Assembly: GCA_964563105.1 (NCBI GenBank)
Contig: CAZLXM010000002.1
Span: 41,716-105,715, forward strand
Source of the DNA: an uncultured Bacteroidaceae bacterium
GTDB taxonomy: Bacteria > Bacteroidota > Bacteroidia > Bacteroidales > GCA-2748055
DNA length: 64,000 nt
Reading direction: 5' to 3'
The position numbers were made by a program, and so were the translations under genes. Shown in pieces: positions 1,164 to 62,487 of the stretch. Each line of letters starts with the position of its first letter. Positions within the stretch are counted from its first letter, which is position 1. The notes beneath the pieces are model-generated. The model saw only the letters and a list, made by a program, of their open reading frames with translations. It was not told where the DNA came from and did not search any database.

Positions 1164-1429
1164 AAAATTACACATGAGGGATGGCGCAGATGCAACCTCT
1201 TTAAACAATTAAACGTATAATCCGATGCATTTTGTTTTTGCCAGGTAATATGTATATCGGCAAAATATAAAAGCCGGCAGAATTTATGAAAAATAGTAAG
1301 TGTATAACAATTTAAAATAAAATTTTAGTAATATGATACCCGGATGTTATTCAAAATTAAACAAGATTAATAAAAAATTGTCTTAACATATCGGAATCAT
1401 ATGATCTTAAAAACCAAAATTATTTGCAC

Positions 1430-2797: not shown

Positions 2798-2815
2798 TTT
2801 AAAATAATTTTTGTT

Positions 2816-3781: not shown

Positions 3782-3803
3782 CCTTTAACAAGTATTATTC
3801 ATT

Positions 3804-5378: not shown

Positions 5379-5433
5379 AAAATAATTTCACAGTAATAAA
5401 TAATAAATAAGTAAAAGATTAAACTATATAATA

Positions 5434-44877: not shown

Positions 44878-46395
44878 CTATCTGCTCCTGGCCTTCCTGA
44901 ATACAATATTATACATTGCTTTCCAAAAATACCTCCAGTCCGTCTTTAAAGGATGTCCCTCATAAGCTTCCAGGTACCTCATTTCCGAATCTTCAATTTC
45001 CTCAAGGGTTTCAGGCATATCTGCATAAAAAGGAGGTATAAGCCCTGGTTTAAAAAGTATCCTTTTCTGTCTTAATTCCTCGTTGTATAAGTCAAAATAT
45101 TGCCGGCTTAATGGCCTGACTCCGACAAGTTTCATATCCCCTTTTAATACATTAAAAAACATGGGCAATTCATCCAGCCAGAATTTACGCAGGAACCTTC
45201 CAAGGGGTGAAACTCTGAAATCATCTTTAAACTTACCCCCGTCTTCCAGTTTATTTACTTCATATACATAATCCTGCAAATATTCAGCAAAGGGATGCAT
45301 AGTGCGTAATTTGTAAACTCTTATCATCTTTCCGTCCTTGCCCACTCTGCGCAATTTAACAAAAGGGCCATAAGTCGGACTGAAATCATAAGCCGGAACA
45401 CCCGTTTTATTTACAATAAAAATAAACATATTATTAATCACCCTTTCATCGCAAATTTCAAAGCCGCAGGAATAAAGCCTTCCCAATACCTCAACTTTTG
45501 AGATCACCCTGTTCATACCCCGGGTAAAAAGGAAATAGATTTTCTTTGTAAGCCGGAACTTTGGAAAAACACGCTTTACAATAACATCAAAAAAATAAAT
45601 GATCCAGTTAATAAGTGGCGGATATTTATTTAATATCCTTTTTTTTCTGGCATCACTGGTTTCAACACAGCCAATAAATATACCATCAGGCGGAAGCTTC
45701 CTGTTTACCGATTCCAGGAATTTGTTCATATACTGTATATCATTAAATCTCCGCAGGTTTATAATATTTGTATAATAATTATCGGGTTGAAATTCAATAT
45801 TAAACCTGGTAGTAGTTGATATTATCAAAGTTTCCTTACTATGCATATCGGCATATTCATCCATAAATTCATAGGCCCCCTTTCCACATGCTGATTCCAC
45901 TTCCTCCATTATAATATCAGGTGAAACAGCATGGCCCATAAAATCTTTTGCCTCTTTCGCCTTTTTCATTTCTGCAGCAGTTGGCAGAGGATTGATGACA
46001 TTAACACCATTTGTGCCTGAATGCAAAAGAAGATAATAAATATTTCCCAGGAAAAGTTCGCCAAATGTTGCAAGGGCAGTAGTGCCAAATAATATTAACC
46101 TTGAAAAATTAGGAAGCTGTAAACCGACAATTATTACTGTCATTACGCCCAATGAAATAAAATTCGGTAATAGTATATTTTGCAGGATCCTTGAAAATTT
46201 ATGTTTCTTTTTAAGGCGATATTTTTTGAAATAAAAAGAAGATATTGACCATAATATAATCAGAAAGAAAAATGCCATTAAATAATGGGAACTAAAATAA
46301 CCGGGGGTATTTGATTTATAAATGGCAACGACAAGATAAGACAGGGCCAATATTAATATATCAATAAGATATATAATAAAATGGCGTTTGTTCAT
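44878..46395 (-). CDS. Polyprenyl-phosphate sugar-phosphate transferase (Bac_transf family) with atypical N-terminal and middle domains
   Basis: C-terminus: 'GPFVKLRRVGKDGKMIRVYKLRTM' ... 'SPLGRFLRKFWLDELPMFFNVLKGDMKLVGVRPL', the PglC/WbaP catalytic core. N-terminus: 4-5 TM helices. Middle: methyltransferase-like segment ('LPPDGIFIGCVET', 'VLGRLYSCGFEI'). Confidence 0.8.
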   Translation of the reverse strand: MNKRHFIIYLIDILILALSYLVVAIYKSNTPGYFSSHYLMAFFFLIILWSISSFYFKKYRLKKKHKFSRILQNILLPNFISLGVMTVIIVGLQLPNFSRLILFGTTALATFGELFLGNIYYLLLHSGTNGVNVINPLPTAAEMKKAKEAKDFMGHAVSPDIIMEEVESACGKGAYEFMDEYADMHSKETLIISTTTRFNIEFQPDNYYTNIINLRRFNDIQYMNKFLESVNRKLPPDGIFIGCVETSDARKKRILNKYPPLINWIIYFFDVIVKRVFPKFRLTKKIYFLFTRGMNRVISKVEVLGRLYSCGFEICDERVINNMFIFIVNKTGVPAYDFSPTYGPFVKLRRVGKDGKMIRVYKLRTMHPFAEYLQDYVYEVNKLEDGGKFKDDFRVSPLGRFLRKFWLDELPMFFNVLKGDMKLVGVRPLSRQYFDLYNEELRQKRILFKPGLIPPFYADMPETLEEIEDSEMRYLEAYEGHPLKTDWRYFWKAMYNIVFRKARSR

Positions 46396-46463: not shown

Positions 46464-47363
46464 TTATTTAATCAATTGTATAAAAGCTTTTCCTTCATGA
46501 TTTTCAATTATTTTAAAGGCTGGTGTTTGCGTTAAAGATATTATACAAGAATGATGGACACTTAGTACTTTATCTTGCAAATCATTATCAGATTCAAGGG
46601 ATTGTATCTTTAATCCTAACCTGTCTTTTAGTATATCAACAGGTAGATGTCTATCATGTGATAAAGTTAAGGCATGGCTCCCCAATTCCTTTATGACTCC
46701 GTCAACTATTTGATCCTTATTTGGTTCATTTTTAAACATATTTGTTTTTAACCAATCACTAACCATAGACTCAGACCATTTTATAGCTTTTTCACATTCG
46801 CCAATCAAAGTAGGAGAATATCTTGATAAAATAGTTTGCCAAACTGGAATAGTTTTAGGATTTGAAGATATTTCAGTTTTCGCTCTTTCAAATTCTTCAA
46901 TAATTCCATGTGTCGGTAATCCATTAATTTGAGGATCGATCGGACCCAAATTGGAGTGTTTGCCCATGATTATTTCTTTACAAGAACATGCGATCATTGT
47001 TCCTGCGGACATAGCAATTTGTGGGACTATTGCACGAATATCATTACCAAAAACTGATTTTAAATAATGTACTATTGATTCGGTGGCACCAATTGAACCA
47101 CCCGGGGTATGAAGTACTAAATCAAGTCCTTTTGATTTATCAAGACCTTTAATCGTCGACATAAACCCCATTTTATCTGAATCCACAATATCAAACCTGA
47201 AGCCATGTTGAGCTAAATTGCCTTTTTGAAGCCACCCTGAATAATAAACAATAACATTTCTACCTGTCTTTTCAGATAACTCGGCAATATATTTCCTCCG
47301 AATATGGTCAAAAGCATTTGGTTGTGCACCAATTTCTTTTAAAATATCGTTCCAGGCAGGCAT
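46464..47363 (-). CDS. SDH-family / SppA-like Clp-fold serine protease
   Basis: 'LDLVLHTPGGSIGATESIV' and 'VPQIAMSAGTMIACSCKEIIMGKHSNLGPIDPQ' match the ClpP/crotonase-fold serine-protease core of the serine-dehydrogenase-proteinase (S49-related) family. 299 aa with no signal peptide. Confidence 0.7.
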   Translation of the reverse strand: MPAWNDILKEIGAQPNAFDHIRRKYIAELSEKTGRNVIVYYSGWLQKGNLAQHGFRFDIVDSDKMGFMSTIKGLDKSKGLDLVLHTPGGSIGATESIVHYLKSVFGNDIRAIVPQIAMSAGTMIACSCKEIIMGKHSNLGPIDPQINGLPTHGIIEEFERAKTEISSNPKTIPVWQTILSRYSPTLIGECEKAIKWSESMVSDWLKTNMFKNEPNKDQIVDGVIKELGSHALTLSHDRHLPVDILKDRLGLKIQSLESDNDLQDKVLSVHHSCIISLTQTPAFKIIENHEGKAFIQLIK

Positions 47364-47718: not shown

Positions 47719-48498
47719 TTAATTCAGCTGCCTAAATTTCGTCACGATATATTTTAAAGGATTTTTCAGGGATTGGAAAAAGAGTTCTTTCAACCAGGGG
47801 AAAGTGTGGTTTGTCCAGCGTTGAGGATGAATGGTAAGGATGATATTTGTTGGAAGTTTATTTTTTAAAGCAGCATTAATGATATCGGAGGTGGAATGAT
47901 AGGTGAAGCCCTGCTCATTCCAGTATTTTTGCTGAGGTATTTTGTCACGTACGCTAACCTTCCAGCCATCCCAACGACGGCCGGTATCAGTCAGGTAGAA
48001 AAACTGTTTAAAATCAGTATCTAAATAGGGTTCGAAGATTATTCCCAGTTTACGGTAATTATATTTTTTCCAGATGTCACGGTTATCCCATTTACTAACC
48101 GGGCTTCCATGCATACAAATAGTTTTAACGGGATAAAATTTTCGAAAATATTCAAGATTTCGGCAAAATTGTTCGTATGCTTTATCTGTATCACCTTTTG
48201 AGCTTACATAATCTTCATAATGATAGCCAATTTCATGTCCAAGCTCTGCAATTTTCTGAATAATATCGGGATCATTGCTTTCAGGGACTATCCTGAAGTA
48301 GTATGCTCCTTTGATGCCGGCTTGTTCTTCAATGATTGCAGTTTGGAGGGCATTTTCAGGCAAAAGGTCAACGTCATGGCGGAGGAAGATGTTTTTTCCG
48401 GGCTTATCATTTAGGATGTCTTTTATTGGGTGAAATAAGTAGGCTTGTTTTTGCAGGGTGTTAAGTAGTTTCTTGAATATTGTCAGCGTAAAATCCAT
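47719..48498 (-). CDS. Polysaccharide deacetylase-like protein (divergent)
   Basis: 259 aa. 'IFLRHDVDLLPENAL' and 'GHEIGYHYEDY' resemble the Asp-Asp and His motifs of carbohydrate-esterase-4-like folds. Assignment is tentative. Confidence 0.45.
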   Translation of the reverse strand: MDFTLTIFKKLLNTLQKQAYLFHPIKDILNDKPGKNIFLRHDVDLLPENALQTAIIEEQAGIKGAYYFRIVPESNDPDIIQKIAELGHEIGYHYEDYVSSKGDTDKAYEQFCRNLEYFRKFYPVKTICMHGSPVSKWDNRDIWKKYNYRKLGIIFEPYLDTDFKQFFYLTDTGRRWDGWKVSVRDKIPQQKYWNEQGFTYHSTSDIINAALKNKLPTNIILTIHPQRWTNHTFPWLKELFFQSLKNPLKYIVTKFRQLN

Positions 48499-48502
48499 GA
48501 GA

Positions 48503-48523
48503 GGTGACGGGTGACGGGTGACG
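48503..48523. repeat. Perfect 3 x 7-nt tandem repeat GGTGACG (CGTCACC on the coding strand)
   Basis: GGTGACGGGTGACGGGTGACG plus GG fills most of the 40-nt gap between the DUF354 gene stop (48539) and the next ATG (48498). It is a GC-rich island in AT-rich DNA. Confidence 0.9.
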
Positions 48524-48538
48524 GGGTAGATTAATTGT

Positions 48539-49621
48539 TTATTTGAATTTTTGCTGATATTGGGGATTTTCTTTCATGATTTTGAAGCTTTCAGGGTAAT
48601 TTTCTACAAACCAAATTAAAAAAGCAGTTACATCTATTTTATCAGCGAGCATTTTCTGTCTGCGTTTTTGCCATTCGTTTTTCAGGTCGGGCATATTAAG
48701 TAGTTCAACTCCTTTTTGAATGGCTTTTATTTGATCCTCAGGTGATTCTGAATATATAAAACATAAATTATATTTTTTCTCCTGTTCATATAAATATAAT
48801 GATCTGGTATTGTGATTTATAACAGATGGGGTGCCTAATACTGAGCACTCCGAAGGCATAGTAAAACTTTCTGCCCAGAGCAAGCTGGCAAAAGCTAATG
48901 CATCATGAATTTTATTTGGAGAAATATTAAGTTTATTTTTTACAATTTCATCAGGCAAAGGAGATTCTGAAGATATAAACACTTTAGCATACTTTGAAAA
49001 TTCTTCAACAGCTAATATTTTATTTTTAAAATAAACACCCGTATGTCCTATATCATGACTAGCTTTCCATGCTACAAAACGTATGATAACATATTTTTCA
49101 TTTTCCCGTACTCCAAGATCATCTAAAACTGATTTATCAGGGGTAAATTGTTTTGGATGGAGATAAGCAAGTTCATGATATCCAGAATATTTTATAAGCT
49201 TACCTGATTTAAGGGGATGTTCATAATCGGATGTTAAAATAGTATCTGTAAAAGGTTTGTACAAGCGTATTTGTTCTAAATTAAAAGTATCTTCAAAAGA
49301 GATGTGGGATTTTCTAAGAAAAAAAGAGGCATGGGCAGCATACATGGAGCCGTGGCTCATAAATATATCAGGTTTAAAATTTTTAGCAGCAATTATTTCC
49401 TGTGCATCAAATTTAAATAGCCCCCATATTTTCCCCGGAAGGGATCTATATTTTTCACCAAAAGAAATAAAATCAAATCCATATTTTTGCAGAAGGTAAA
49501 TTTCAAACTCCTTTTCTCTGCATGTAAAAAGAATTTTATGTCCTTTTTGGGACATATTTTTTGCAAAATTTTTAAAGAGATGAACATGAGCCGGATGACC
49601 AATATCAATTAAGATTCTCAT
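48539..49621 (-). CDS. DUF354-family protein (GT-B / epimerase-like fold)
   Basis: N-terminus 'MRILIDIGHPAHVHLFKNFAKNMSQKGHKILFT' is the recalled hallmark of DUF354 proteins. 360 aa. 1-nt overlap with the upstream gene. Confidence 0.6.
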   Translation of the reverse strand: MRILIDIGHPAHVHLFKNFAKNMSQKGHKILFTCREKEFEIYLLQKYGFDFISFGEKYRSLPGKIWGLFKFDAQEIIAAKNFKPDIFMSHGSMYAAHASFFLRKSHISFEDTFNLEQIRLYKPFTDTILTSDYEHPLKSGKLIKYSGYHELAYLHPKQFTPDKSVLDDLGVRENEKYVIIRFVAWKASHDIGHTGVYFKNKILAVEEFSKYAKVFISSESPLPDEIVKNKLNISPNKIHDALAFASLLWAESFTMPSECSVLGTPSVINHNTRSLYLYEQEKKYNLCFIYSESPEDQIKAIQKGVELLNMPDLKNEWQKRRQKMLADKIDVTAFLIWFVENYPESFKIMKENPQYQQKFK

Positions 49622-50613
49622 TACTTTAGTTTCCCTGACAAAGTAATTATCAGCCTTCCAAGTTTGAATAAGAACATTTTATTGATTTTCAAAAATCTTC
49701 CATGTTCCATAATCTCACCTCCGAATTTCTTTTTAAATTCACGAACACCATAATTATCATCGGGCTTCCCAGCGCCCATAAAATCAAAATATTTAAAGCC
49801 ATTATTATAAGCATATTCAATACCTGCAAATGTTGCCATTACGCTAGGGCTGGCATCTTTGTATTCCTCGTCAAGGCCACAAATATAAAATTCATAGATT
49901 GCTTTTCCGCTTAATCCTATACACATTATCCCGCCAATAATTTTATTTTTATAATGAACCAAGAGGAAAACACCAACAGCATTTATAAAAAAAGCTTCGA
50001 AAAATTCAAGAGCAGGTAATGGCTTTCTGATTTTTTTAGCATACAAATCACGAAGAATCAGGTAAAATTCCTTAATTTCATTTAAAGAAACGGCCTCCTT
50101 TATTTTTACACCTTTTTTTGTTGCCTTATTTATCTGGCGCTTTCTGTTAGTATTGAGATTATTCCAAATAATTTCACGCGAAGAACAATTTAAGTGAAAA
50201 TTGAGATGCGGTTGATATATCCATCCATATTCAGCAAACAACTTTTTATAATTGCTATAATCGTTATAATTACGAATCTCAATATAAATAGTTTGATATT
50301 TAAGTTGGGTGTTTATTTCTTCAAATAAAATTGGCAGGGCTTCAGCATACCCCTCCAAAATCAAAGGCCCGCCATAAATTATGCCGCGACTTGAAAAATA
50401 ACCTTTTATGCCTTTCTCTTTCTGTAAAATCGCTACTACTAAAGCAATAAGGCCCTCAGAATTTTCTATTCCTATAGCTATTGCAGAAAAGCCAGGAACA
50501 GAATTAATAAATTTGTAAAATTCAAATGTTTGAAAGGGTGAGGAAAAACAGCTTTTGTTTATTAAATTTTGCCAAAAATCAAGAGATATATCCTCATTAA
50601 TATATACTTGCAT
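49621..50613 (-). CDS. FemAB-like / GNAT-fold (Acetyltransf_6) aminoacyl- or acyl-transferase
   Basis: 330 aa. The overall pattern resembles FemA/FemB-family proteins: 'SPFQTFEFYKF', 'NTNRKRQINKATKKGVKI', 'YICGLDEEY', 'FDFMGAG...YGVREFKKKFGG'. Confidence 0.6.
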   Translation of the reverse strand: MQVYINEDISLDFWQNLINKSCFSSPFQTFEFYKFINSVPGFSAIAIGIENSEGLIALVVAILQKEKGIKGYFSSRGIIYGGPLILEGYAEALPILFEEINTQLKYQTIYIEIRNYNDYSNYKKLFAEYGWIYQPHLNFHLNCSSREIIWNNLNTNRKRQINKATKKGVKIKEAVSLNEIKEFYLILRDLYAKKIRKPLPALEFFEAFFINAVGVFLLVHYKNKIIGGIMCIGLSGKAIYEFYICGLDEEYKDASPSVMATFAGIEYAYNNGFKYFDFMGAGKPDDNYGVREFKKKFGGEIMEHGRFLKINKMFLFKLGRLIITLSGKLK

Positions 50614-50622
50614 GAATGATAC

Positions 50623-52473
50623 TTATGATAAGAAATGCCTGTACCAAAGCTCTAAGTTTATCCATTTCCATATTTCCCTGGATATATTAATGCGTTTATT
50701 AAAATGATCATTATAAAGCCTTAATGCTGTTTTCTTATTAATATATTCATCTGAAAAACTCTTAGTTGTCAGAAGCTCAGTTATTAAATTTTTAAAGAGA
50801 GGATCTCTAAACCATTCTGCTTCTGGTGTTCCAAATCCAATTTTATCTTTCCTAAGCCGTATATTTTCAGGTACAATATTTCTCATTGCTTCACGAAATA
50901 TACTTTTTGTCATTCCCTTATTTATTACATCCTTGTTATCAAGAGAAAGAGATTTTTCCACAAACCTGTAATCAAGAAATGGCACTCTTGCTTCAATTGA
51001 GAACCTCATGGAATTTCTATCCTCCCATTTAAGAAGATGTTCAAGTTTATATTCAAAATGGTTAAACAGGGCATCTTCCAATGTTTTCGAACCATATAAT
51101 TTATCACTAATGTCACTGTAACAACTATATTTATTAATAAATTCATGGTTAATATATCGCTTTTCATTTGTCTTTACTCTTGTTCGTAAAGAAGAAGGAA
51201 GCATAAAAAAAGCAAACGTCTTCAATCCATAAATACTCTTATGCTCTTTTAGATAGTGAAAGATTTCAGAGCTAAGTTCCAACAGCTTTCCATTTCTAAA
51301 GAGATCTTTAAAGTAAAAACCAAAGAAATATTGATAACCCGCAAATAATTCATCTGCACCTTGTCCATCAAGGGTGACAGCAACATGTTTATTTGCAAGT
51401 TCCATAACTTTATATTGTGCATAAGGAGAAGTTGACGGCAATGGCTCAGCATGAGTTTTAATGAAATCCTCTAAATCTGATATAAGTGTGTGTGTATTAG
51501 GCTTTATATAAAATATATTTTTAAGAATAGATTGAAATTCTTCTATAAAAACAGACTCATCACCCAATTGACCTTTCTCATAAATAGCAGAAAAAGTCTT
51601 AAGATCATTTTTATTATAATGTTTCAATAAAATTGAAACAATACTTGAAGAATCTAAGCCTCCACTCAGGCATACACCATAAGGAACTTCCTTTTGAATT
51701 CTTAAACCGATAGCTGATGATAACAATTCTCTGAACTCGGAAGGATCTTTAAAACTCTCTGACATTTTTACTCTTTCACGCAGATCATACCATTTTCTGA
51801 TTGAAAGTTGAACTTTAAAGTCAGATGATTTGATATTAAAAATCAGATTGTGGCCATGTTGCAACTTCTTGATATCTTGATAAAAAGTTCTTTCGTTCTG
51901 ATCTGTACGATTGAATGCAAGAAAATCAAAAATTGAAAGATTATCCAGACGAGGCTTTTGCTTTAAAACCGAAAGAATAGGAGGTATTTCCGAAGCAAAA
52001 ATAAAAGATTCTTTGATGATGCAATAATAAAAAGGTTTTATACCATATCTGTCACGGGAAGCAAAAACAGATTTATTTATTCTGTCAAAAATCACGAATG
52101 ACCACATTCCATTAAGCTTATGAAGAAAATCTTCACTCCATTGTATATAAGCAGACAGTAAAACCTCAATATAGGATCCAGATATAAAACTATTCCCTAA
52201 AGATTCCAATTCTTTTCTAAGTTCAAAATAATTAAAAATCATTCCATCAAAAACAATAACATATCTCTTATCCTGGGATTGCATCAGCTGATTATGGTTT
52301 GCGGTATTGAAATCAATTAATCTTAATAACACTAATCCTAAACCTAAATTCTTTTCAAGAAATATTGCTTCATCATCAGACCCTCTGTGTTTCATGATTT
52401 GCATCATATTTCTGATATCGGATTCCTGTACCGGTTCCCTGTTGAAATTGATTATACCGCATATGCCACTCAT
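50623..52473 (-). CDS. asnB: Asparagine synthase-family amidotransferase (glutamine-hydrolysing type)
   Basis: N-terminal Ntn glutaminase domain ('GICGIINF', 'HRGSDDE'). PP-loop 'VCLSGGLDSS'. 616 aa. The Cys nucleophile is at position 5, not 2. Confidence 0.85.
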   Translation of the reverse strand: MSGICGIINFNREPVQESDIRNMMQIMKHRGSDDEAIFLEKNLGLGLVLLRLIDFNTANHNQLMQSQDKRYVIVFDGMIFNYFELRKELESLGNSFISGSYIEVLLSAYIQWSEDFLHKLNGMWSFVIFDRINKSVFASRDRYGIKPFYYCIIKESFIFASEIPPILSVLKQKPRLDNLSIFDFLAFNRTDQNERTFYQDIKKLQHGHNLIFNIKSSDFKVQLSIRKWYDLRERVKMSESFKDPSEFRELLSSAIGLRIQKEVPYGVCLSGGLDSSSIVSILLKHYNKNDLKTFSAIYEKGQLGDESVFIEEFQSILKNIFYIKPNTHTLISDLEDFIKTHAEPLPSTSPYAQYKVMELANKHVAVTLDGQGADELFAGYQYFFGFYFKDLFRNGKLLELSSEIFHYLKEHKSIYGLKTFAFFMLPSSLRTRVKTNEKRYINHEFINKYSCYSDISDKLYGSKTLEDALFNHFEYKLEHLLKWEDRNSMRFSIEARVPFLDYRFVEKSLSLDNKDVINKGMTKSIFREAMRNIVPENIRLRKDKIGFGTPEAEWFRDPLFKNLITELLTTKSFSDEYINKKTALRLYNDHFNKRINISREIWKWINLELWYRHFLS

Positions 52474-52653
52474 TTAATAAAAATTAAAGATTAAATATTA
52501 TTTAATTATCTTCCAATGGTTAATCTTGATAAATAGCTCAATTTGTGTTATTTATAATCCTAATTTCATCAAAATACCAACTACCTTTCCAACTTTAAAG
52601 AATTCTAACCTTTTTATTAAAATATTTAGATAAACTTTAACAGATTATAATTT

Positions 52654-53592
52654 TTAATTTTTAACCTTCAATACTGTTTGATACACTTCAACTATCCTTT
52701 TAGCTATTGTATCGGAATCCAGCCCAAGTTTAATGATCCTTTCCCTGCCTTTTGTATAACCCTGTTCCCTGCGGAATCTAATTGCAAGTTCAATTTTTTC
52801 TTTTATATCTTTGGGTTCAAATGAAGAAATGTAACAACCAGAGGTGTTGCCAATAATCCACCTTACATCACCAACATCTGTTGATACTATTGGACAATTA
52901 CAAGCCATTGCTTCTTTAATTATGTTAGGGGAACCTTCATGTAATGATGTTAAAAGTAGCAGATCAGCCGCATTCAACCAATGACAAACCTCCAGGGAAG
53001 AAATATTGTAAAGCTGAAGAAGTTCAATATCAGGATCTCCCATTAATTTTAATGATTTTGAAGCAAGTGAATAGTTTTTTTCAGGCCTGCCAGGTTGTGA
53101 TATAAAAACAATAAGCTTTTTACAATCAGAATATTCCACAAGAATTCTGGCTTCTTTTTTTGGAATATAACGGAATAAACTGATATTTACACCATTTGGA
53201 ATAATTATAGCCGAAGAAAAATTTAACATTTCCTTCATTTGCTTACTCTTCACTATTAACTTGGCCCAGTTATTACGAGCTAAAAACCTTGATATAATTC
53301 TTGTTAGAGATGATTTTAAAACATCTGAACCCATCAACGATACAACTACAGGGAACCGTCCAGACAGGGTTGCAACAAAAGCACTCAAACTGTAATGTGC
53401 ATGAATAAGATCATACTTTCCTATTTTAAAGATTTTTCTAATTTTTGGAACACTTAAAATATGCCCTAATAAACCAGGCTTCACAAGAAAATAATCTAAC
53501 TCTATACCCGCTTTTTTGAGTGATTCTCCCTGATTTTGGACTACTTCTCCTACAACTCCTTTTCTGCCGCTTGAAACAAAAAGGACCTTCAT
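52654..53592 (-). CDS. Glycosyltransferase, GT4-like (GT-B)
   Basis: 312 aa. 'MKVLFVSSGRKG' start, and the C-terminal 'TSLHEGSPNIIKEAMACNCPIVSTDVGD' is the E-x7-E region of retaining GT-B enzymes. Confidence 0.75.
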   Translation of the reverse strand: MKVLFVSSGRKGVVGEVVQNQGESLKKAGIELDYFLVKPGLLGHILSVPKIRKIFKIGKYDLIHAHYSLSAFVATLSGRFPVVVSLMGSDVLKSSLTRIISRFLARNNWAKLIVKSKQMKEMLNFSSAIIIPNGVNISLFRYIPKKEARILVEYSDCKKLIVFISQPGRPEKNYSLASKSLKLMGDPDIELLQLYNISSLEVCHWLNAADLLLLTSLHEGSPNIIKEAMACNCPIVSTDVGDVRWIIGNTSGCYISSFEPKDIKEKIELAIRFRREQGYTKGRERIIKLGLDSDTIAKRIVEVYQTVLKVKN

Positions 53593-53640
53593 ATTTTTAT
53601 GAAATAAATTAGATATATACTTTATTAATATTTGAGTATC

Positions 53641-54693
53641 TTAGCTATTAATTAAATATTTTAATACAAAATCTATTCTTAGATTAAAACAAGCATTTTT
53701 TGCAAAATCTCCTTCTTCAAAAATCCATCTGTTATGTACATTTTGATACCTGCCTGGTTTGCCATTAACTAACATCTGATAAGCATCACTCTGACCAAAT
53801 ATACATTGCATTTCATTTACCAGAAATCCTTTTTTTGTTTCAAATATGTCCACTGCCTGACTGTAAAATTCAAATTTATCAGTGATCTGTTTAACAAAAT
53901 CTAAAACATTAAGCGAAGGATTGTCATAATTTTTCAATAACGACCCGCTACTTTTATCGCCAATTTTTAATTTTTTATGTGCAAAAAAATTATCTCCTAT
54001 TCTCACAACTCTCCATTCAAACACATGTTCAATAAATTCCTGAAAAATAACAAATTCTTTTTGTGGACTGGCAGCCTTTGTTTTATAAATATTTAATTTC
54101 CTGCTTATGTCGAATGGGTGGATAATGTAATGAAACCCTCTTTTTATAAATCCACCCATTTCTCTGTTGGGTCCAATTCGCTGTGGTGCACCTTTACCCT
54201 TGAAAGTTTGATCAATATAATTTCTGGATTCTGAAAAAGACCGTAAAATTTTTACCCCGCTACCTGATGCACCTATATTAGTTTTAGCTACAATCGGAAA
54301 AGTAGCTGATGCAATATAATTTAAGGCTTCATGAATATTATAAAAAATCTCTGTTTTAGGGTGAGGAATATTATTAGCTTTTAACCAGCTCGAAAGAAAC
54401 CGTTTATTTTCATATATAAAAATTTCCAGTGGAGATGGAAAAATTTTATACCCGAGTATAGAATCTAAAACATAGATCCTTTCATCATAAAGTTGTTTAA
54501 AAGGAGCTGAAAGTCCTCCCGGTTTGGCAAGAAGAATATCAAATTCATCTTTTTGTAACTCCTCAAACCAACCACTTGCGGTTAGATTTACAACCCGGTA
54601 TTCCAGCTCTTCTTTATAATCCTCACATGCTTTTATCCAGGGCAGATGATCGTCTTTAAGTTCGTTACTTAAAATTATCGCTTTTATTTTCAT
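53641..54693 (-). CDS. ATP-grasp domain protein
   Basis: 'FPIVAKTNIGASGSGVKIL', 'VIFQEFIEHVFEWRVVRIGD' and 'VNEMQ' follow the RimK/ATP-grasp pattern. 350 aa. Confidence 0.7.
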   Translation of the reverse strand: MKIKAIILSNELKDDHLPWIKACEDYKEELEYRVVNLTASGWFEELQKDEFDILLAKPGGLSAPFKQLYDERIYVLDSILGYKIFPSPLEIFIYENKRFLSSWLKANNIPHPKTEIFYNIHEALNYIASATFPIVAKTNIGASGSGVKILRSFSESRNYIDQTFKGKGAPQRIGPNREMGGFIKRGFHYIIHPFDISRKLNIYKTKAASPQKEFVIFQEFIEHVFEWRVVRIGDNFFAHKKLKIGDKSSGSLLKNYDNPSLNVLDFVKQITDKFEFYSQAVDIFETKKGFLVNEMQCIFGQSDAYQMLVNGKPGRYQNVHNRWIFEEGDFAKNACFNLRIDFVLKYLINS

Positions 54694-54741
54694 TTATTAG
54701 TAGCAAAAACTCCAAATCTATTTGAAATACAATATTGTATT

Positions 54742-56421
54742 CTAAATTGTTTTTAATAAATATGATAAGCTTAATACTTTAAACAATATATCTTTATCAA
54801 GTCTTGGTAATTCATTTGTTTTAAAATATTCATCAGGAACAATAATATTACTCCAAAATTCACTATTTGTTTTCCAGGCAAGGTTTACAGAGTAGGGATC
54901 AAACTCAGGCAAAGGTTTCTTTATTCTTTTTCTTAAATATCCCTTTGCTATATTCAGCTTACCAAAAGGACTTAACAGGTCATTAGGCCTGTAACCTTTA
55001 TCAGTCATAAATTTGCCAAATAGAGGATATGTTTTTTTAATAATATGAGCATAAAGTATCTGTCCTTTATATCTTTTAAAAGGATTATGTTCAAAAAACT
55101 CAGAATGAATTCCGGCAAGTTTAGTTTCAAAAATGGCTTTTAAAAATTCTATATCTAGAAACGGAGTTCTGTTTTTAATATACTTAAACTGATTTATCAT
55201 TTCAGCTCCGAAATACTTTCTGAATATTTCTTCAAAAACAAAAACATAAAACTTCTGATTTTTGGTCAGATCTGTTAATGAATTATCGTAACATGGCAAT
55301 TTTAGGATATCCTCGTTCAAAGATATCAGATCATATTTTAGATATTCCCCGTTCAAAAACTTGAATTCCTGACTATTTTCAACTTTTTTAATTCCTTCCT
55401 CATAATCCACGGAATCAAATAAAACGCGCAAATTCGAAGAAATTACAACTCCTGCAATATGAGCAGCACGGAAAATTTCACTTCCAAAATTTCCAGTAAT
55501 AATATATTGATATTCTTTTGCAAGACTCTTTGCGGAGTAAAGATAATGAGCCCTGGCAAAAGTTGCATTTCCGGATGAATTCAAAATAAATTCCTTTCCA
55601 CAATTAAGACTGGATTTTTTTATATATTCATTATTAAGTTCAAAATTAATAAAGGGCAGATTAGCTTTTGAAGCTAATTGCATTGCTATTTGTGTATCTT
55701 TTGAATCATTTGAACCAAAACAATAACAGGAAAAAGCCTTATTATAATATTTAGCTGCAGAAATAAGTGTTCGTCCATCAAAACCACCCGTCAATGCATG
55801 AATATAAGGTTCATCTGGCAGATATTTTTTTGTATTTGAAATAAAAATATCTCTTATTTTATTTACGGATTTTCTCCAGGATACAGGTGTTGTCGAAAAA
55901 TAATCCTGAATTTGTGTATGTTTTAAAAATTCAATATCTTTTTTTGAAATCCTAACATAGAAATTAGCCGGCAGGAGATGTATATCCTCAAAAATACTAT
56001 TATTAAATAAAGCATAATTAAAAAGGACTGTTTCAATGATAAATCTGGATGAAATTTTTTTTATTCCGAGATGCTGTCCCAGCTTTATAGCATTATCTGA
56101 AAAAATAACTCTATTTTGATCAATAAAATAATAAAGTGGTAAAATAGAAAAAAGTGAATTGCCTATTATAATCTCTCTATTTTGCTTATTCAAAAGAATA
56201 TAATAATAATGACCGTAAACATTATTTATAATAAATTCAGGAGATAAGTTTTTTGAAAGACTTTTTTTAAAACTCGAGTTTAATATTGGATCCCCCCACG
56301 AAATGAACTCATAATTTTTATTTTTTAAATGTATTACCATTACGGGTTTTTGAATGAACGATAACTCATTTATAGTTATTAATTTATTTTTTAAGTCCAA
56401 TTCAAAAATAAAACTAATCAT
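54742..56421 (-). CDS. Asparagine synthase-like adenylating enzyme lacking the glutaminase nucleophile
   Basis: 559 aa. PP-loop-like 'IHALTGGFDGRTLISA' sits in an AsnB-synthetase-like C-terminal half. The N-terminus (MISFIFELDL...) has no Cys nucleophile. Confidence 0.55.
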   Translation of the reverse strand: MISFIFELDLKNKLITINELSFIQKPVMVIHLKNKNYEFISWGDPILNSSFKKSLSKNLSPEFIINNVYGHYYYILLNKQNREIIIGNSLFSILPLYYFIDQNRVIFSDNAIKLGQHLGIKKISSRFIIETVLFNYALFNNSIFEDIHLLPANFYVRISKKDIEFLKHTQIQDYFSTTPVSWRKSVNKIRDIFISNTKKYLPDEPYIHALTGGFDGRTLISAAKYYNKAFSCYCFGSNDSKDTQIAMQLASKANLPFINFELNNEYIKKSSLNCGKEFILNSSGNATFARAHYLYSAKSLAKEYQYIITGNFGSEIFRAAHIAGVVISSNLRVLFDSVDYEEGIKKVENSQEFKFLNGEYLKYDLISLNEDILKLPCYDNSLTDLTKNQKFYVFVFEEIFRKYFGAEMINQFKYIKNRTPFLDIEFLKAIFETKLAGIHSEFFEHNPFKRYKGQILYAHIIKKTYPLFGKFMTDKGYRPNDLLSPFGKLNIAKGYLRKRIKKPLPEFDPYSVNLAWKTNSEFWSNIIVPDEYFKTNELPRLDKDILFKVLSLSYLLKTI

Positions 56422-56517
56422 TCATTTAAAAATTAATAACAAAATAGATACTTATCGTTAGGAATAAGTGGTTGAGAGGGAATAAATTAATATTTTTTTT
56501 TAAGCTTTGTTTAAAAT

Positions 56518-57645
56518 TCAATATCGTAAATGTCTAAAAAGACTTAATAACTCAAAATATGGAGTTTTATCTGAAAGTGCTTTAACTTTAAAAATAGTTT
56601 TTTGTCTTTTAAACCATGATGAAAAATTTGCCCCTATTCTTTCAGGAATTCTTGTTTTTTCTGTTTCTTTTATATCCTTATTATTTCCTTTGGTTGTCAT
56701 GAGATAACCAGCTTCAATGGCCATATTATGTAGTATATTATTATTATCTCCATGAGGCCAACAAAGAAAATCTACCGTTTTATTCAAATTTTTTTCAATA
56801 ATCCTTTTAGAGTCAAAAATTTCATGTCTTACTCTATCCTGATATTCTTGTTCACTTTCTTTTGATATGATCAATGAATCATTTTTTTGATAAATATTAT
56901 ACTTCTCCTTTATAAGTTTAAAAGCACTTTCAAATTTGTAATTATAGAAATTAAGGTCTTTAAATATATCCACACAAAAATCAATAAATCCAGGATTTAT
57001 TTTTATTTTCCTGGCAATAACAGAAGATCGCATTTCAAAAACGGGATAACCATAAGGTAATAACTTTTCAAAATCAACATCATCAATATAATAAGGTTTT
57101 CGTTCTGGAAAATTATTAGAAATATAATAGAGACAATCTGCTCCCGGATGGTGAAAATCTACAAGATTGTCAGACACCGGATATTTCGTATGTGTAAATG
57201 TATGAGATTGAATATCTATGACCCCTGAAGCTTCCATAATACGCATTTCTTCCCAACTTAAAAATCCCCATTGCATGAGATCTTTTTCATTAACTTTATT
57301 TTCCAATAAATCTTCAAGATTAGGGCGGACAATATTTCTTTTATCTACAAATTCGGGACTAATAAATATAGTTCCTTTCAATCCATATTTCTTTAGTAAT
57401 GGATATGCATACTGCCAATTATCAAGATAACCATCATCAAAAGTCAGGATTAATGGATTTTTTACCGGATCACTTATACCATTAGTTATTTCCCAATACT
57501 TTTTAAGATTAATGACATTGTAATGTTTTGAAAAATATTTTAATTGGTCCTCAAAAATTGTAATTTCCAGAGTTAAAAAATTTTTAATCCACTTAGGATT
57601 TTTAATTCCTACAGAATGAAAAAACATAACAGGTATTTTTTCCAT
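56518..57645 (-). CDS. Polysaccharide deacetylase (NodB homology, CE4)
   Basis: 'LILTFDDGYLDNWQYAYPLLKKYGLKGTIFI', 'IQSHTFTH' and 'LCWPHGD' are NodB motifs 1, 2 and 5. Confidence 0.8.
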   Translation of the reverse strand: MEKIPVMFFHSVGIKNPKWIKNFLTLEITIFEDQLKYFSKHYNVINLKKYWEITNGISDPVKNPLILTFDDGYLDNWQYAYPLLKKYGLKGTIFISPEFVDKRNIVRPNLEDLLENKVNEKDLMQWGFLSWEEMRIMEASGVIDIQSHTFTHTKYPVSDNLVDFHHPGADCLYYISNNFPERKPYYIDDVDFEKLLPYGYPVFEMRSSVIARKIKINPGFIDFCVDIFKDLNFYNYKFESAFKLIKEKYNIYQKNDSLIISKESEQEYQDRVRHEIFDSKRIIEKNLNKTVDFLCWPHGDNNNILHNMAIEAGYLMTTKGNNKDIKETEKTRIPERIGANFSSWFKRQKTIFKVKALSDKTPYFELLSLFRHLRY

Positions 57646-58724
57646 TAAAGTAGGTTAAATGAATTATAAATACTTTTTATTTTTTTTAAATGTTGTTGAA
57701 AAGAGAAACGATTATTAAATTCTTCAGCTACAATTGGAACTAATGTTTTTAAATGATCAAGATTTTTTAATTTATTAATGACATTTTTTTCTAAATTTTG
57801 ATCCAGATTTACCAAAAAATCGGGATAATTTCGAAAAATTTCTTTCATGCTTGGTATTGCTGAAGTTATTACTGGTGTTCCATTTAAAATACTTTCTACT
57901 ACAACATTGCCAAAAGATTCATATTTCGAAAGAAACAATAAAACATCTGAGTTATTATACACATTTTCAATTTTTTTCCTGAATCCTTTCACTTTAATAA
58001 ATTGTTCAGCTTTAAGTTCTTTAATCCGTTTTGTTAATTCCTCTTTTATGTGACCATAACCAAATAACTCAAAAACCGTTTCAGGGATTTCATTATGTAT
58101 GTTAAAAGCCAAATCAATCCATAAAAAAAGATTCTTCCCTTCAGTAAATCTACCTACATAGATAATTTTGATCAGATTATTTATATTTTTTTTAACTGGA
58201 GGAACATTATTTATAAAGCTAATCGGATTATATAGTATCTGAATCTTTAAATTTGCTTTAATTTTTTTATTAAAAATATCCTTACTATATTCTGAATTTG
58301 AGATTAAAATTATTTTTTTATTAAGAGAAATTTTCCATATTAATTTTCTAAATATTTTCTCAAATATATTCTTCCAGTACACAGTTCCCCTGATACTATA
58401 TACAATTTTATTAACACCAGCTAATCTAACAACAAACAAATAAAATGGGCCAGTATTAAAAAGATGAAAAATATCATTTTTATTCCTGCGAGCATAGCTC
58501 CAAAGTCTTATTAAAGAAAGAAAATTATTTTTAGAGCCTGTTTCTCTTATAACTTCAAATTTTTCATACACATCAAATAGCCCAGTCACAGGTGGACGTA
58601 TAGTGAAAACTTTAAAATTTATTTCCGACTGAAATTTAATTATATTTGATAACGTTAATTCTATTCCACCAGGTGAAGAATAAAAATGAACGATATGTAT
58701 AATAACACCTTTGTGATTATTCAT
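57645..58724 (-). CDS. Glycosyltransferase, GT4-like (GT-B)
   Basis: 359 aa. 'YVGRFTEGKN' and 'SKYESFGNVVVESILNGTPVITS' (E-x7-E). 1-nt overlaps with both neighbours. Confidence 0.75.
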   Translation of the reverse strand: MNNHKGVIIHIVHFYSSPGGIELTLSNIIKFQSEINFKVFTIRPPVTGLFDVYEKFEVIRETGSKNNFLSLIRLWSYARRNKNDIFHLFNTGPFYLFVVRLAGVNKIVYSIRGTVYWKNIFEKIFRKLIWKISLNKKIILISNSEYSKDIFNKKIKANLKIQILYNPISFINNVPPVKKNINNLIKIIYVGRFTEGKNLFLWIDLAFNIHNEIPETVFELFGYGHIKEELTKRIKELKAEQFIKVKGFRKKIENVYNNSDVLLFLSKYESFGNVVVESILNGTPVITSAIPSMKEIFRNYPDFLVNLDQNLEKNVINKLKNLDHLKTLVPIVAEEFNNRFSFQQHLKKIKSIYNSFNLL

Positions 58725-59785
58725 TAAACATTTAATTTTTCTTTTATCCTGTAGGCATTTTTTTCTGGACTATATTTCTCCAAAAAATAAGATCTCATTA
58801 TTTCAATTGTCTTTAACCGTTCATTTTCATGAGTAAGCCAATATTTTGCAACTTTTTCAGCTTCATTGTAATTATCAATAAGGGGTAAAGTAATATCAAG
58901 TCCCGCAAATATTTTCTTATCTACATCATTTCTATATTCAATAAGTGGAAGCGTGCCTGCAGAAAGAGCCTCAACTAAACGTAGATGAATACCATTAAAT
59001 ATAGTAGGATTACTATTTATAGGAATAATTTTTGATTTATTAAACATTTTGTTTAATTTTTTTGTAGGAATATATGTAGTTTTCTGAAATTTATTTTTAA
59101 GTTTAGGAAAAAAATCAAACCATCTTTTCCATGCATCATTGCCATAAATCTTTAAATTAAAATTTACAAAATTATTCATCAATTTTGCTTTTTTATAACC
59201 CCATGAATTTTTATATGAAGAGCCAACATATAAGATGTCAGTTTCCTTTTCATCATTTAATGATGGCTCGCTTACCTTAAAATATGCATTTAAATTCATG
59301 CCTGGAATAAAAAACATTGTTTTCTTCAATCCAATAGTGTTTAATTGTGACAACCAAAAAGAATCAGATGAAAGTATTAAATCAGCATATTCCAGGCATG
59401 GGAGATAATAATTATTTGTATGGGTAAAAAACGGACTATCCCCCATAAAAAAAATCAGTTTTGCTTTTTTCTTAATTTCTATACATGTATTAGGTAAAAG
59501 GAATTCACTATTATAAATAAGAATAAGATCCGGTTTGTACTTAAAAACTTCATTAATAATATTTTTATTTATTTTCGTTAGGAAATAATTTTCCCAATAA
59601 CTTCGGATTTTATAAGGGAATCTGTATATTTGAGTATGTAAATTTTGATCAATCACTTTAATCGTCTCTCTGACATCAAATCCTTTTGTTTCGTCTGCTA
59701 AATTTTTTAAAATATCAAGTAAAGAATTAAATAATGAATATTTTCTTATCCCTAATAGTAACGCTTTTTGATAGGATTTAGTCAT
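58724..59785 (-). CDS. Glycosyltransferase, CgeB/DUF3880-like
   Basis: The C-terminus 'LRLVEALSAGTLPLIEY' resembles the Glyco_trans_1_2 / CgeB family. The start is set at MTKSYQKALLLG (59785), an 8-nt ATGACTAA overlap with the upstream stop. The track ORF extends to 59824. Confidence 0.55.
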   Translation of the reverse strand: MTKSYQKALLLGIRKYSLFNSLLDILKNLADETKGFDVRETIKVIDQNLHTQIYRFPYKIRSYWENYFLTKINKNIINEVFKYKPDLILIYNSEFLLPNTCIEIKKKAKLIFFMGDSPFFTHTNNYYLPCLEYADLILSSDSFWLSQLNTIGLKKTMFFIPGMNLNAYFKVSEPSLNDEKETDILYVGSSYKNSWGYKKAKLMNNFVNFNLKIYGNDAWKRWFDFFPKLKNKFQKTTYIPTKKLNKMFNKSKIIPINSNPTIFNGIHLRLVEALSAGTLPLIEYRNDVDKKIFAGLDITLPLIDNYNEAEKVAKYWLTHENERLKTIEIMRSYFLEKYSPEKNAYRIKEKLNV

Positions 59786-61175
59786 ATCCTTGTAAATTGG
59801 AATTACTATAAATAAATGCACCAAAACTAAAAAAAATAACTTGTGGAATAATTTTAACAGGTGAAGTAATAAAACTAAATTGCTGACTACTAGTTGAATG
59901 AATAATAAACCAACCTAAAAGAAAAATAGCAAATAATGGTAAAGATTTAGTAAAAAGATCAAATTCCTTATAATTCCAATATTTCAACAGTAGTTTAAAT
60001 GAAAAATAAAATAGGAAACCAGTTAGCAAAACAAAACCAATAGCTCCAGAAAACATTAAAAGGTTTTGATTACCAACATGAGTATCATTAAATTTCCTAA
60101 AAGTATCAGATATCCCCCAACCAAAAAACGGACTTTCAAAAAATTTTTTCATTACCTCTGGCCCACGATAACTTAATCTTGAAAGTGTTCCTTCTGCCGT
60201 AATATCACCTTCAGCAATAGATTGAAGAGTTTGAAGTCTTTCTGATGCAAAATCTACTTGCTTCTTTAACTTTTCATTACTTAAAGCGAAAACTATAATA
60301 ATAAGGATTGCGAAAAATTCAGAAATCTTTTTTGGTCGAATACCAGGTACAAAAAGAAATGAAAATAGTGTTATAAAACTAAAACTAATAATCCAGCCTC
60401 GAGTAGCAGACATGTACACCATACCATATGCTACTATAATTAAAAAATATAAATATATTTTGTTATAATGAATATTTTTATCTTGTGTCATAAAAAACAA
60501 GGCTCCAAAAAGTCCCATAAGAGTTATACCTGCATTATGAAACCCTCTGAATATCTCAATTTCAGAAAATTGTTCTTTTGAAAGCTCAGTAATTTGAATA
60601 ATCGGTACTCCTGTCAATATAACAAAGATTCGGGTAATAAAGGCTCCAATCAAGACAATAAAAATAAATGTAAAGAACCTTTTATAATGTTCTAATGTAG
60701 AAAATAGTTTTGGAATTGAATAAAAAAGTGCGAATGGCATAGTAAGCTTTAATATTCTGAAATAATCTCTAGATTCACCCTTAAAATCTATTATCTGACC
60801 CCAAATGATCAGAAATATAATATATAAAGATAGAATTATAATATACTTTCTATAAAAAATATAAGGTTGATATTTATTTTTAAATGCTTTGAATAAGGAT
60901 AATAAAATATAAACTTGAACTAATTCTATCGATGGCATGCCTGGTATAACTGTGATTGTAACAGTATAAACCCCAAATAAACCAAAAAAACCATCAACTG
61001 TTACAAAAAAAAATACTAACCAAAAAGCTTCGTCCTTAGAACGATAATACATTACTAAGGTCATTAGATACCATAAAATAGCTATAATTTTAGGGACCTT
61101 ATAAGTAACTATTATAGTAATAGTTATTAATAATAGAAACTTTAGAGTATTTTCTGGTAAATACTTTTTTTTCAC
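59778..61175 (-). CDS. O-antigen ligase/polymerase-like (Wzy_C-type) polytopic membrane protein
   Basis: 465 aa with ~10-12 TM segments and a large loop. 'THVGNQNLLMFSGAIGFVLL' resembles the H-N-x-x-L...G..G motif of the Wzy_C family. Confidence 0.65.
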   Translation of the reverse strand: MKKKYLPENTLKFLLLITITIIVTYKVPKIIAILWYLMTLVMYYRSKDEAFWLVFFFVTVDGFFGLFGVYTVTITVIPGMPSIELVQVYILLSLFKAFKNKYQPYIFYRKYIIILSLYIIFLIIWGQIIDFKGESRDYFRILKLTMPFALFYSIPKLFSTLEHYKRFFTFIFIVLIGAFITRIFVILTGVPIIQITELSKEQFSEIEIFRGFHNAGITLMGLFGALFFMTQDKNIHYNKIYLYFLIIVAYGMVYMSATRGWIISFSFITLFSFLFVPGIRPKKISEFFAILIIIVFALSNEKLKKQVDFASERLQTLQSIAEGDITAEGTLSRLSYRGPEVMKKFFESPFFGWGISDTFRKFNDTHVGNQNLLMFSGAIGFVLLTGFLFYFSFKLLLKYWNYKEFDLFTKSLPLFAIFLLGWFIIHSTSSQQFSFITSPVKIIPQVIFFSFGAFIYSNSNLQGYD

Positions 61176-61268
61176 AAAATTTTAGCTCTTTTTAAAATTT
61201 ATTTTATAAAAAGAAAATGATTAGTTTAGTATAATAAAGATGGTATTAAAAAATTACAAAATACTATA

Positions 61269-62468: not shown

Positions 62469-62487
62469 CAGAATAATATTATTAAGA

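Follow-up and report, generated by a model that had tools for sequence, protein, structure and literature searches.

The stretch of DNA analyzed in this study, a window of 64,000 nucleotides (64 kb) of contig CAZLXM010000002.1 from an uncultured Bacteroidaceae bacterium, carries on its minus strand a block of eight genes (positions 47719-57645) that is rich in deacetylases and amide-bond-forming enzymes. We found that this block belongs to a conserved, modular cassette that occurs across phyla; of the roughly twelve collinear genes of that cassette, it covers the 3' two-thirds. In our judgment, this horizontally spread cassette probably builds an oligosaccharide linked to undecaprenyl pyrophosphate (Und-PP) in the cytoplasm and adds amide-linked substituents to it. 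The most likely role of its enzymes is to deacetylate amino sugars and to put amino acids or further amide-linked groups in the place of the acetyl groups, a chemistry that has already been demonstrated in gum-disease bacteria (the Wbp/Vim pathway). Whereas surface-polysaccharide loci are usually hypervariable, the cassette stays collinear with 30-70% protein identity across several phyla, which points to a conserved glycan motif. With its unannotated family of AsnB-fold enzymes, its DUF354 protein, and its slots in which ATP-grasp, PaaK-like, and Fem-like enzymes are interchangeable, it appears to be a toolkit for the amide-linked decoration of sugars.

Conservation and modularity of the cassette

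Eight consecutive minus-strand open reading frames (ORFs) fill the interval 47719-57645 exactly, with intergenic gaps of 0-180 bp, just as an original prediction made from the DNA letters alone had described them. Pfam and NCBIfam scans confirmed six of them (CE4, ATP-grasp, GT4, AsnB, FemAB/Acetyltransf_6, and DUF354), and all of the predicted family assignments hold, that of a second deacetylase-like protein being supported by weak CE4 similarity. The limits drawn around the block proved too narrow, as the conserved cassette starts at a Wzy_C-like gene at 59778-61175. Inspection of the eight protein sequences revealed no predicted signal peptides or membrane spans, and the chemistry would therefore take place in the cytoplasm on nucleotide- or lipid-linked sugars.

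Related loci were collected with the gene for the 559-amino-acid (aa) AsnB-like enzyme as the seed. A scan of species-representative genomes gave 80 loci, and 84 related loci were compared in total, their gene order being derived from tblastn searches and clustering of ORFs. The consensus order, with variable members in parentheses, is (Wzx), Wzy_C-like, GT1_2, GT4a, CE4, AsnB-like, ligase slot, GT4b, (AsnB, extra CE4), FemAB slot, DUF354, (protein with a type IX secretion system [T9SS] C-terminal domain), 259-aa protein, and (phosphoglycosyl transferase, PGT). Most of the taxa in the 80-locus scan are metagenome-assembled genomes of Bacteroidales, Rikenellaceae, and Saprospiraceae, joined by Cloacimonadota, Ignavibacteriales, Caldithrix, Desulfobacteraceae (Desulfobacterota), and Deferrimicrobium; contigs of Petrotoga and Aminicenantes show the same gene order. 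Because this order recurs in more than 80 loci, the arrangement of the block is not a matter of chance. Upstream of the AsnB-like gene, 59 loci contributed 42 Wzy, 40 GT4a, 38 CE4, and 38 GT1_2 genes; downstream, GT4b was present in 48 of 53 loci, DUF354 in 41, ATP-grasp in 39, FemAB in 35, the 259-aa protein in 30, and AsnB in 23. Farther upstream, many relatives have Wzx flippase genes and often a DegT aminotransferase gene. Our literature searches, on DUF354 together with ATP-grasp, AsnB, and FemAB proteins and on Fem-like enzymes of O-antigen or capsule loci, returned no description of this cassette. A variant of it is present in Lentimicrobium saccharophilum (locus L085), a cultured organism that makes the question of its product testable.

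The modular character of the cassette is most apparent around the AsnB-like gene. Directly upstream of it, a CE4-type gene (from the 375-aa family or a second CE4-like family) is found in 64 of 75 loci, and directly downstream, in what we call the ligase slot, 65 of the 75 have a carboxylate-activating or Fem-like enzyme: an ATP-grasp protein (30), an extra Fem-like protein (18), a PaaK-like adenylating ligase (11; PDB 4r1l, E 7e-16), a second type of ATP-grasp protein (5), or FemAB (1). In about 10-11 loci, the FemAB slot next to DUF354 is occupied instead by an ATP-grasp gene and a phosphatidylserine-decarboxylase-like gene. That the slots are exchanged among carboxylate-activating and aminoacyl-transferring enzymes is the strongest in silico support for an amide-linked decoration. 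It also means that the presence of several N-C bond-forming steps in one locus, which had been regarded as unusual, is in fact a conserved hallmark of this cassette family.

Two variants of these slots were observed. In the loci with the exchanged FemAB slot (L012, L013, L017, L020, L023, L024, L026, L032, L041, L044, and L050), the decarboxylase-like protein is of the pyruvoyl type, and the exchange hints at an amino acid that is linked through its side chain and then decarboxylated. In Saprospiraceae and Lewinellaceae (L059-L083), one to four extra Acetyltransf_6/FemAB-like paralogs stand in tandem between the AsnB-like and ATP-grasp genes, a pattern suggestive of a peptide branch that grows step by step. 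An additional CE4 gene is likewise part of these loci, and an MBOAT acyltransferase gene is found in some of them.

The two AsnB-family enzymes

The 559-aa protein (54742-56421, minus strand) has no Pfam match, and its score against TIGR01536 (E 1.9e-12) is far under the cut-off. However, comparison of its family with the AsnB family by hhalign gave a probability of 94.9%, with TGGFDG aligned to the SGGLDS pyrophosphate-binding loop (PP-loop). Its AlphaFold2 (AF2) model, with a mean pLDDT of 91.5, has its best PDB matches in the hydroxyamidotransferase TsnB9, Escherichia coli AsnB, human ASNS, beta-lactam synthetase, and carbapenam synthetase, and an N-terminal Cys is absent from every member of the family that was examined. 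The profiles, the fold search, and the family-wide lack of the Cys thus agree with the original assignment of this protein as an AsnB-like adenylating enzyme without a Cys nucleophile. Homologs of about 560 aa are widespread and unannotated; a full-library profile search at E<=1e-30 returned 428 clusters at 50% identity. Like the 559-aa protein, beta-lactam synthetase, carbapenam synthetase, and TsnB9 combine the two-domain AsnB fold and a PP-loop with the lack of a working N-terminal Cys. However, they are only about 10% identical to it and serve secondary metabolism, whereas the 559-aa protein is found in a context of glycan assembly.

The second family member, a 616-aa amidotransferase (50623-52473, minus strand; PF00733, E 1.2e-62), is an optional member of the cassette. 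Both proteins have the two-domain AsnB fold and a PP-loop, as seen from the TGGFDG motif and the structure search for the 559-aa protein and from SGGLDS in the 616-aa protein. As the latter passes the TIGR01536 cut-off (374 versus 267 bits), it might be regarded as a housekeeping asparagine synthetase standing among generic polysaccharide genes that share no common product. We give this explanation almost no credence: the gene order is conserved across phyla, AsnB occupies the same cassette position in the 23 of 53 loci that have it, the genes of the block are closely packed (gaps of 0-180 bp), and the glutaminase site of the present copy is degenerate. Housekeeping asparagine synthesis, which the original prediction had named as an outcome that would speak against it, is effectively refuted by the synteny.

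The degeneration of the glutaminase site is extensive. The 616-aa protein begins with MSGICGI, whereas its orthologs begin with MCGICGI, and it has the substitutions C2S, R49L, N76D, E78M, and D101Y at positions that 19 aligned orthologs retain. According to an alignment of one ortholog with E. coli AsnB, these positions correspond to Cys1, Arg49, Asn74, Glu76, and Asp98 of E. coli AsnB, residues described as being needed to position and hydrolyze glutamine (PMC4659947). Of the positions with at least 95% conservation in the comparison with the 19 orthologs, 23 are altered in this protein, 14 of them within the first 125 residues; the synthetase domain is intact and keeps its PP-loop. An alternative start codon does not restore the Cys, as the only candidate, an ATA, would give C-G-I-I-N-F, which misfits the pattern C-x-I-x-G, and four further residues of the glutamine site would still be substituted. 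In the 616-aa protein, the Cys and the glutamine-binding residues of a class II (N-terminal nucleophile, Ntn) glutaminase are thus replaced by Ser, Leu, Asp, Met, and Tyr, and the 559-aa family has no N-terminal Cys at all; both AsnB-family enzymes of the window are therefore without a working glutaminase site. Contrary to the original description of the 616-aa enzyme as glutamine-dependent, its sequence makes glutamine dependence in the present genome unlikely. Relaxed selection could account for the decay, as could a lineage-specific change of the nitrogen donor.

Other enzymes of the cassette

The first gene of the block encodes a cytoplasmic NodB-type de-N-acetylase of 375 aa (56518-57645, minus strand; PF01522, E 4.7e-21). 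It has the metal triad and the catalytic Asp of CE4 enzymes, in the motifs TFDD and H(S/T)xxH (here HTFTH), and all 27 orthologs compared share D70, D71, H148, and H152. The 259-aa protein at the other end (47719-48498, minus strand) is divergent and possibly a CE4-like deacetylase as well. It has the motifs RHDVD and HEIGYH, its match to NCBIfam PdaB has an E-value of 3.7e-4, and the top eight PDB matches of its family profile, albeit weak (E 1e-4 to 2e-2), are all CE4 enzymes.

The ligase slot of the window is occupied by an ATP-grasp protein of 350 aa (53641-54693, minus strand), which weakly matches GARS_A, RimK, and LysX and has PurD, LysX, and RimK as its nearest PDB structures. The FemAB/Acetyltransf_6 protein (330 aa; 49621-50613, minus strand; PF02388, E 2.6e-13) is a putative aminoacyl transferase of the tandem-GNAT type. 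In the PDB, its family profile matched only the aminoacyl-tRNA-dependent Fem enzymes FemA (E 8e-12), FmhB, and FemX, and it aligned to FemX over residues 11-297, nearly the full length. It shares the tandem-GNAT fold with FemX of Weissella, FemA, and FmhB, and a C-terminal R-F-K-x-x-F-G-G with an aminoacyl-tRNA-dependent peptide synthase. Its donor would probably be aminoacyl-tRNA. In contrast to these enzymes, which act in peptidoglycan synthesis with a peptide stem as the acceptor, the cassette protein is encoded outside any peptidoglycan locus and presumably acts on a de-N-acetylated sugar.

The remaining proteins are related to glycan assembly. DUF354 (360 aa; 48539-49621, minus strand; PF04007) gave an AF2 model with a mean pLDDT of 92 and a GT-B fold. 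Its best TM-score in Foldseek, 0.70, is to the UDP-GlcNAc 2-epimerase WecB, while GT1 enzymes and MurG were matched at comparable E-values, and on the basis of the model it could be a glycosyltransferase or an enzyme similar to UDP-HexNAc 2-epimerases. The other glycosyltransferases are GT4b, a short GT4 protein of 312 aa assigned by its family match (52654-53592), GT4a (57645-58724; PF00534, E 8.8e-22), and a CgeB-like Glyco_trans_1_2 protein (GT1_2; 58724-59824; PF13524, E 1e-9), all on the minus strand. The Wzy_C-like protein of polymerase or ligase type (59778-61175, minus strand) has nine predicted transmembrane (TM) segments, counted as hydrophobic stretches, and matches PF04932 with an E-value of 1.7e-5, below the gathering score. 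Downstream of the block, a Bac_transf polyprenyl-phosphate glycosylphosphotransferase (44878-46395, minus strand; PF02397, E 5.8e-26; 114 bits against TIGR03025, under its cut-off) is likely to be the initiating enzyme.

Proposed route to an amide-decorated glycan

From the protein families, the cytoplasmic character, the conserved order, and the exchangeable slots, we infer a mechanism in five steps. The phosphoglycosyl transferase and four GT-B enzymes (GT1_2, the two GT4 proteins, and DUF354) would build the glycan; in a variant of this step, DUF354 would act as a 2-epimerase-like enzyme instead. The CE4 enzyme would then take an N-acetyl group off an amino sugar, and the 259-aa CE4-like protein would probably do likewise at a second site. 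The exposed amines would be re-acylated, with the FemAB-like enzyme using an aminoacyl donor, probably aminoacyl-tRNA, while the Cys-less AsnB-fold enzyme and the ATP-grasp enzyme would each join a carboxylate to an amine, the former via an acyl-adenylate and the latter via an acyl-phosphate. Subsequently, the 616-aa AsnB-family enzyme would amidate a carboxylate with nitrogen from free ammonia or another amine rather than from glutamine. Finally, the Wzy_C-like membrane protein would polymerize or ligate the finished unit.

The original prediction had proposed the same sequence of deacetylation, re-acylation, and amidation, with uronic acids as the targets of the last reaction. The general scheme is supported by the abundance of such enzymes in the locus, by the Wbp/Vim precedent, and by the exchange of slots. 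The part that concerns uronic acids is unsupported: as neither the cassette nor the 64-kb window has a UDP-sugar dehydrogenase, the amidation of uronic acids is only one option. The carboxylates could instead belong to the attached amino acids.

Several points weigh against the proposed route. Among the scanned ORFs of the cassette and the window, there is no sugar dehydrogenase or Wbp-type gene, and no product structure is known for any cassette-bearing organism. Instead of a Wzx flippase, the window shows a Wzt ABC-transporter ATPase, located at its edge, which makes the export route ambiguous. The deacetylase assignment of the 259-aa protein is weak, given that hhalign did not find a significant relationship between its family and the cassette CE4 family (probability 5%). 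DUF354 may, from its modeled structure, be an epimerase rather than a transferase, and the donor of the FemAB protein could be aminoacyl-tRNA or another compound. In addition, the co-occurrence of the genes was measured from a single anchor, the AsnB-like gene.

Comparison with the Wbp/Vim pathway and a possible link to the T9SS

The closest characterized precedent, by analogy of enzyme types, is the Wbp/Vim pathway of Porphyromonas gingivalis. In that pathway, the 2-N-acetyl group is taken off by the CE4 enzyme VimE, Ser or Gly is attached by VimA, a protein reported to match TIGR03019, and a uronamide is formed by WbpS, a member of the AsnB family (PMC7468200). When vimA was swapped, Gly was attached in place of Ser, and deletion of wbpS led to loss of the uronamide (PMC7468200). 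The modified sugar sits in a pentasaccharide that is made by an initiating transferase and glycosyltransferases (PMC13086638). The Wbp/Vim systems of P. gingivalis and Tannerella forsythia have the same four enzyme types as the cassette, namely a CE4 enzyme, a TIGR03019-like FemAB/GNAT protein, an AsnB-family protein, and a GT4 (VimF). At the family level, the cassette thus combines CE4, FemAB/TIGR03019-like, and GT4 proteins in one unit, its likeness to VimA and VimE being drawn from their reported families. The logic also appears to be the same, in that an N-acetyl group is taken off, an amino acid is put on, and a carboxylate is amidated; both systems would build the unit on Und-PP by means of an initiating transferase and glycosyltransferases, in hosts that are Bacteroidota with a T9SS.

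There are, however, clear differences between the two. The cassette lacks WbpA, WbpB, WbpE, and WbpD, and the scanned ORFs of the window contain no dehydrogenase, DegT, or hexapeptide-acetyltransferase domain that would represent the Wbp enzymes for the 2,3-di-N-acetyl uronic acid, although such genes may be located in another part of the genome. It has in addition the Cys-less AsnB-fold enzyme, the ATP-grasp enzyme, DUF354, and the second CE4-like protein. Furthermore, its genes are clustered and collinear, whereas the Wbp/Vim genes are scattered, and, unlike Wbp/Vim, it reaches beyond the phyla that bear a T9SS.

The resemblance to Wbp/Vim raises the question as to whether the cassette makes an amine-presenting 'linking saccharide' to which the T9SS sortase attaches its cargo, as is the case for the anionic lipopolysaccharide (A-LPS) of P. 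gingivalis. The shared enzyme logic would be in line with this explanation, and the window encodes gldKLMN, two PorP/SprF proteins, and an SprB-repeat CHU_C cargo protein. Moreover, most of the recovered cassette-bearing taxa belong to the Fibrobacterota-Chlorobiota-Bacteroidota (FCB) group. The linking sugars are known to vary among species, that of Prevotella intermedia being a different one, an N-alanyl deoxyhexose, and several undiscovered pathways are expected in Bacteroidota by the authors of that work (PMC11969387). In addition, among the 53 loci with sufficient downstream sequence, 18 have within the cassette a gene whose product, about 400 aa long, ends in a T9SS sorting domain (Por_Secre_tail); it is located between the DUF354 and 259-aa genes (among them L013-L015, L017, L018, L020, L023, L024, L027, L028, and L032). 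On the other hand, the cassette is also present in Petrotoga, Aminicenantes, and Desulfobacterota, outside the T9SS-bearing group; it has its own Wzy-like gene; neither it nor the window has Wbp genes; the T9SS genes of the window are surrounded by housekeeping genes at a distance of over 40 kb; and the likeness to VimA, VimE, and VimF is one of families rather than of directly compared sequences. We therefore regard a dedicated role in T9SS cargo attachment as rather doubtful.

We would put forward with equal reserve the broader idea of a portable module by which glycans are equipped with free alpha-amino 'handles', in the form of aminoacyl or short peptide branches, for the sortase-like anchoring of secreted proteins. 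If it is true, the cassette would count among the T9SS linking-sugar pathways that still await discovery in Bacteroidota, and in Saprospiraceae, where up to five Fem-like paralogs occur, it would attach peptide branches of several residues to a polysaccharide. Should the product bear free amino groups, cargo anchoring in T9SS bacteria without the Wbp/Vim genes could be explained by the cassette.

Relationship to PEP-CTERM/exosortase loci

The original prediction had also linked the block to the exopolysaccharide (EPS) loci of PEP-CTERM/exosortase systems. The overlap in gene repertoire is real, comprising a FemAB-like protein, a polysaccharide deacetylase, AsnB-family proteins, a Wzy_C-like protein, GT4 proteins, and a Bac_transf protein, and has been pointed out in the literature (PMC7468200), where loci of this kind beside exosortase genes have been noted (PMC7468200, PMC1569441). 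In fact, TIGR03019 is the best NCBIfam match of the FemAB protein, and TIGR03108 is the second-best of both AsnB-family proteins. It is therefore conceivable that the cassette is the EPS arm of a sorting system associated with XrtA, XrtF, or another Xrt. However, the PEP-CTERM/XrtA EPS loci (TIGR03019, TIGR03108, TIGR03006, TIGR03088, TIGR03097, and TIGR03013) resemble the cassette at the superfamily level, whereas in the search with the NCBIfam exosortase-associated hidden Markov models no XrtA-associated model came anywhere near its cut-off. TIGR03019 gave 29.3 bits against a cut-off of 260, TIGR03108 gave 320 and 20.6 against 817, TIGR03088 gave 40-43 against 409, and TIGR03013 gave 65 against 393, while TIGR03006 and TIGR03097 had no match at all.

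The gene neighborhoods agree with these scores. As the original prediction had noticed, no exosortase is present in the window; its ORFs of at least 100 aa with at least three hydrophobic segments all belong to other families (MlaE, FtsX, PMT_2, LspA, IspA, Bac_transf, and Wzy_C). Within 10 kb on either side of the 84 related loci, no exosortase was found among the recurrent or longer multi-TM ORFs (Wzy, Wzx, MBOAT, PMT, and PGT), a scan in which one ORF had no match, one had weak matches only, and a few singletons were left out. On the grounds of the model cut-offs and the content of the neighborhoods, we reject membership in an exosortase system and consider the proposed link very unlikely.

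Neighboring genes and minor observations

On the same strand, the block is preceded by the GT4, Glyco_trans_1_2, and Wzy_C-like genes of the cassette, a GT2-like gene, a gene for a 244-aa protein, and a Wzt ABC-transporter ATPase gene. The last two of these occupy 62488-63998 (minus strand). The ATPase includes a carbohydrate-binding domain of the Wzt_C type and runs off the end of the window; the 244-aa protein that follows it has a weak match to a polysaccharide methyltransferase family. With these two genes upstream of the Wzy_C-like gene, ABC-type and Wzy-type parts are present in one apparent operon, and neither of the two is conserved in the related loci. With regard to Wzx/Wzy-type assembly, the window provides the phosphoglycosyl transferase and the Wzy_C-like protein, together with the ATPase at its edge, and no Wzx flippase was found in it. 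In the interval 56000-64000, the GC content falls to 0.26-0.28 from about 0.35 where the window carries housekeeping genes, a drop typical of surface-glycan loci or acquired DNA.

Downstream, the block is followed by a gene for an SDH-type ClpP-like protease, the Bac_transf gene, a gene for a 557-aa protein, and then housekeeping genes. The protease gene (SDH-family ClpP-like serine protease; 46464-47363, minus strand) stands between the 259-aa and Bac_transf genes, with a 355-bp gap upstream of it, and none of the 84 related loci contains an equivalent gene. As the transferase gene directly follows the 259-aa gene in four relatives (L035, L048, L051, and L058), the protease gene, on this comparison of sequences, looks like a local insertion. 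A scan for sigma-70 promoters and terminators gave counts at or below the expectation from shuffled sequence, the consensus used being the wrong one for Bacteroidota.

The first 30 kb of the window contain the T9SS/gliding core genes gldKLMN, two PorP/SprF genes, and the gene for the SprB-repeat CHU_C protein, and the host is thus a T9SS-bearing member of the Bacteroidota. These genes lie at 225-6336 and 21495-26564; gldK has an FGE-sulfatase domain, and the SprB-repeat protein is 1391 aa long with a CHU_C signal.

Some peculiarities were noticed among the related loci. Small genes of about 110-130 aa, of the bAvd/23S-rRNA-intervening-sequence four-helix-bundle type or the PDDEXK_3 type, are interleaved with the cassette genes in L002, L003, L005-L007, L009, L011, L034, L046, L048, and L085. 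Locus L032 (JAAYPD010000376.1), binned as a Methanomicrobiales archaeon, has a cassette of the bacterial type whose proteins are 42-55% identical to those of the window, which is the result of either misbinning or inter-domain transfer. In the Petrotoga loci L002 and L003 (12261-18925), a bAvd-like gene is flanked by a partial tandem duplication of the ATP-grasp/GT4 pair, and two ORFs stand in place of a single AsnB gene.

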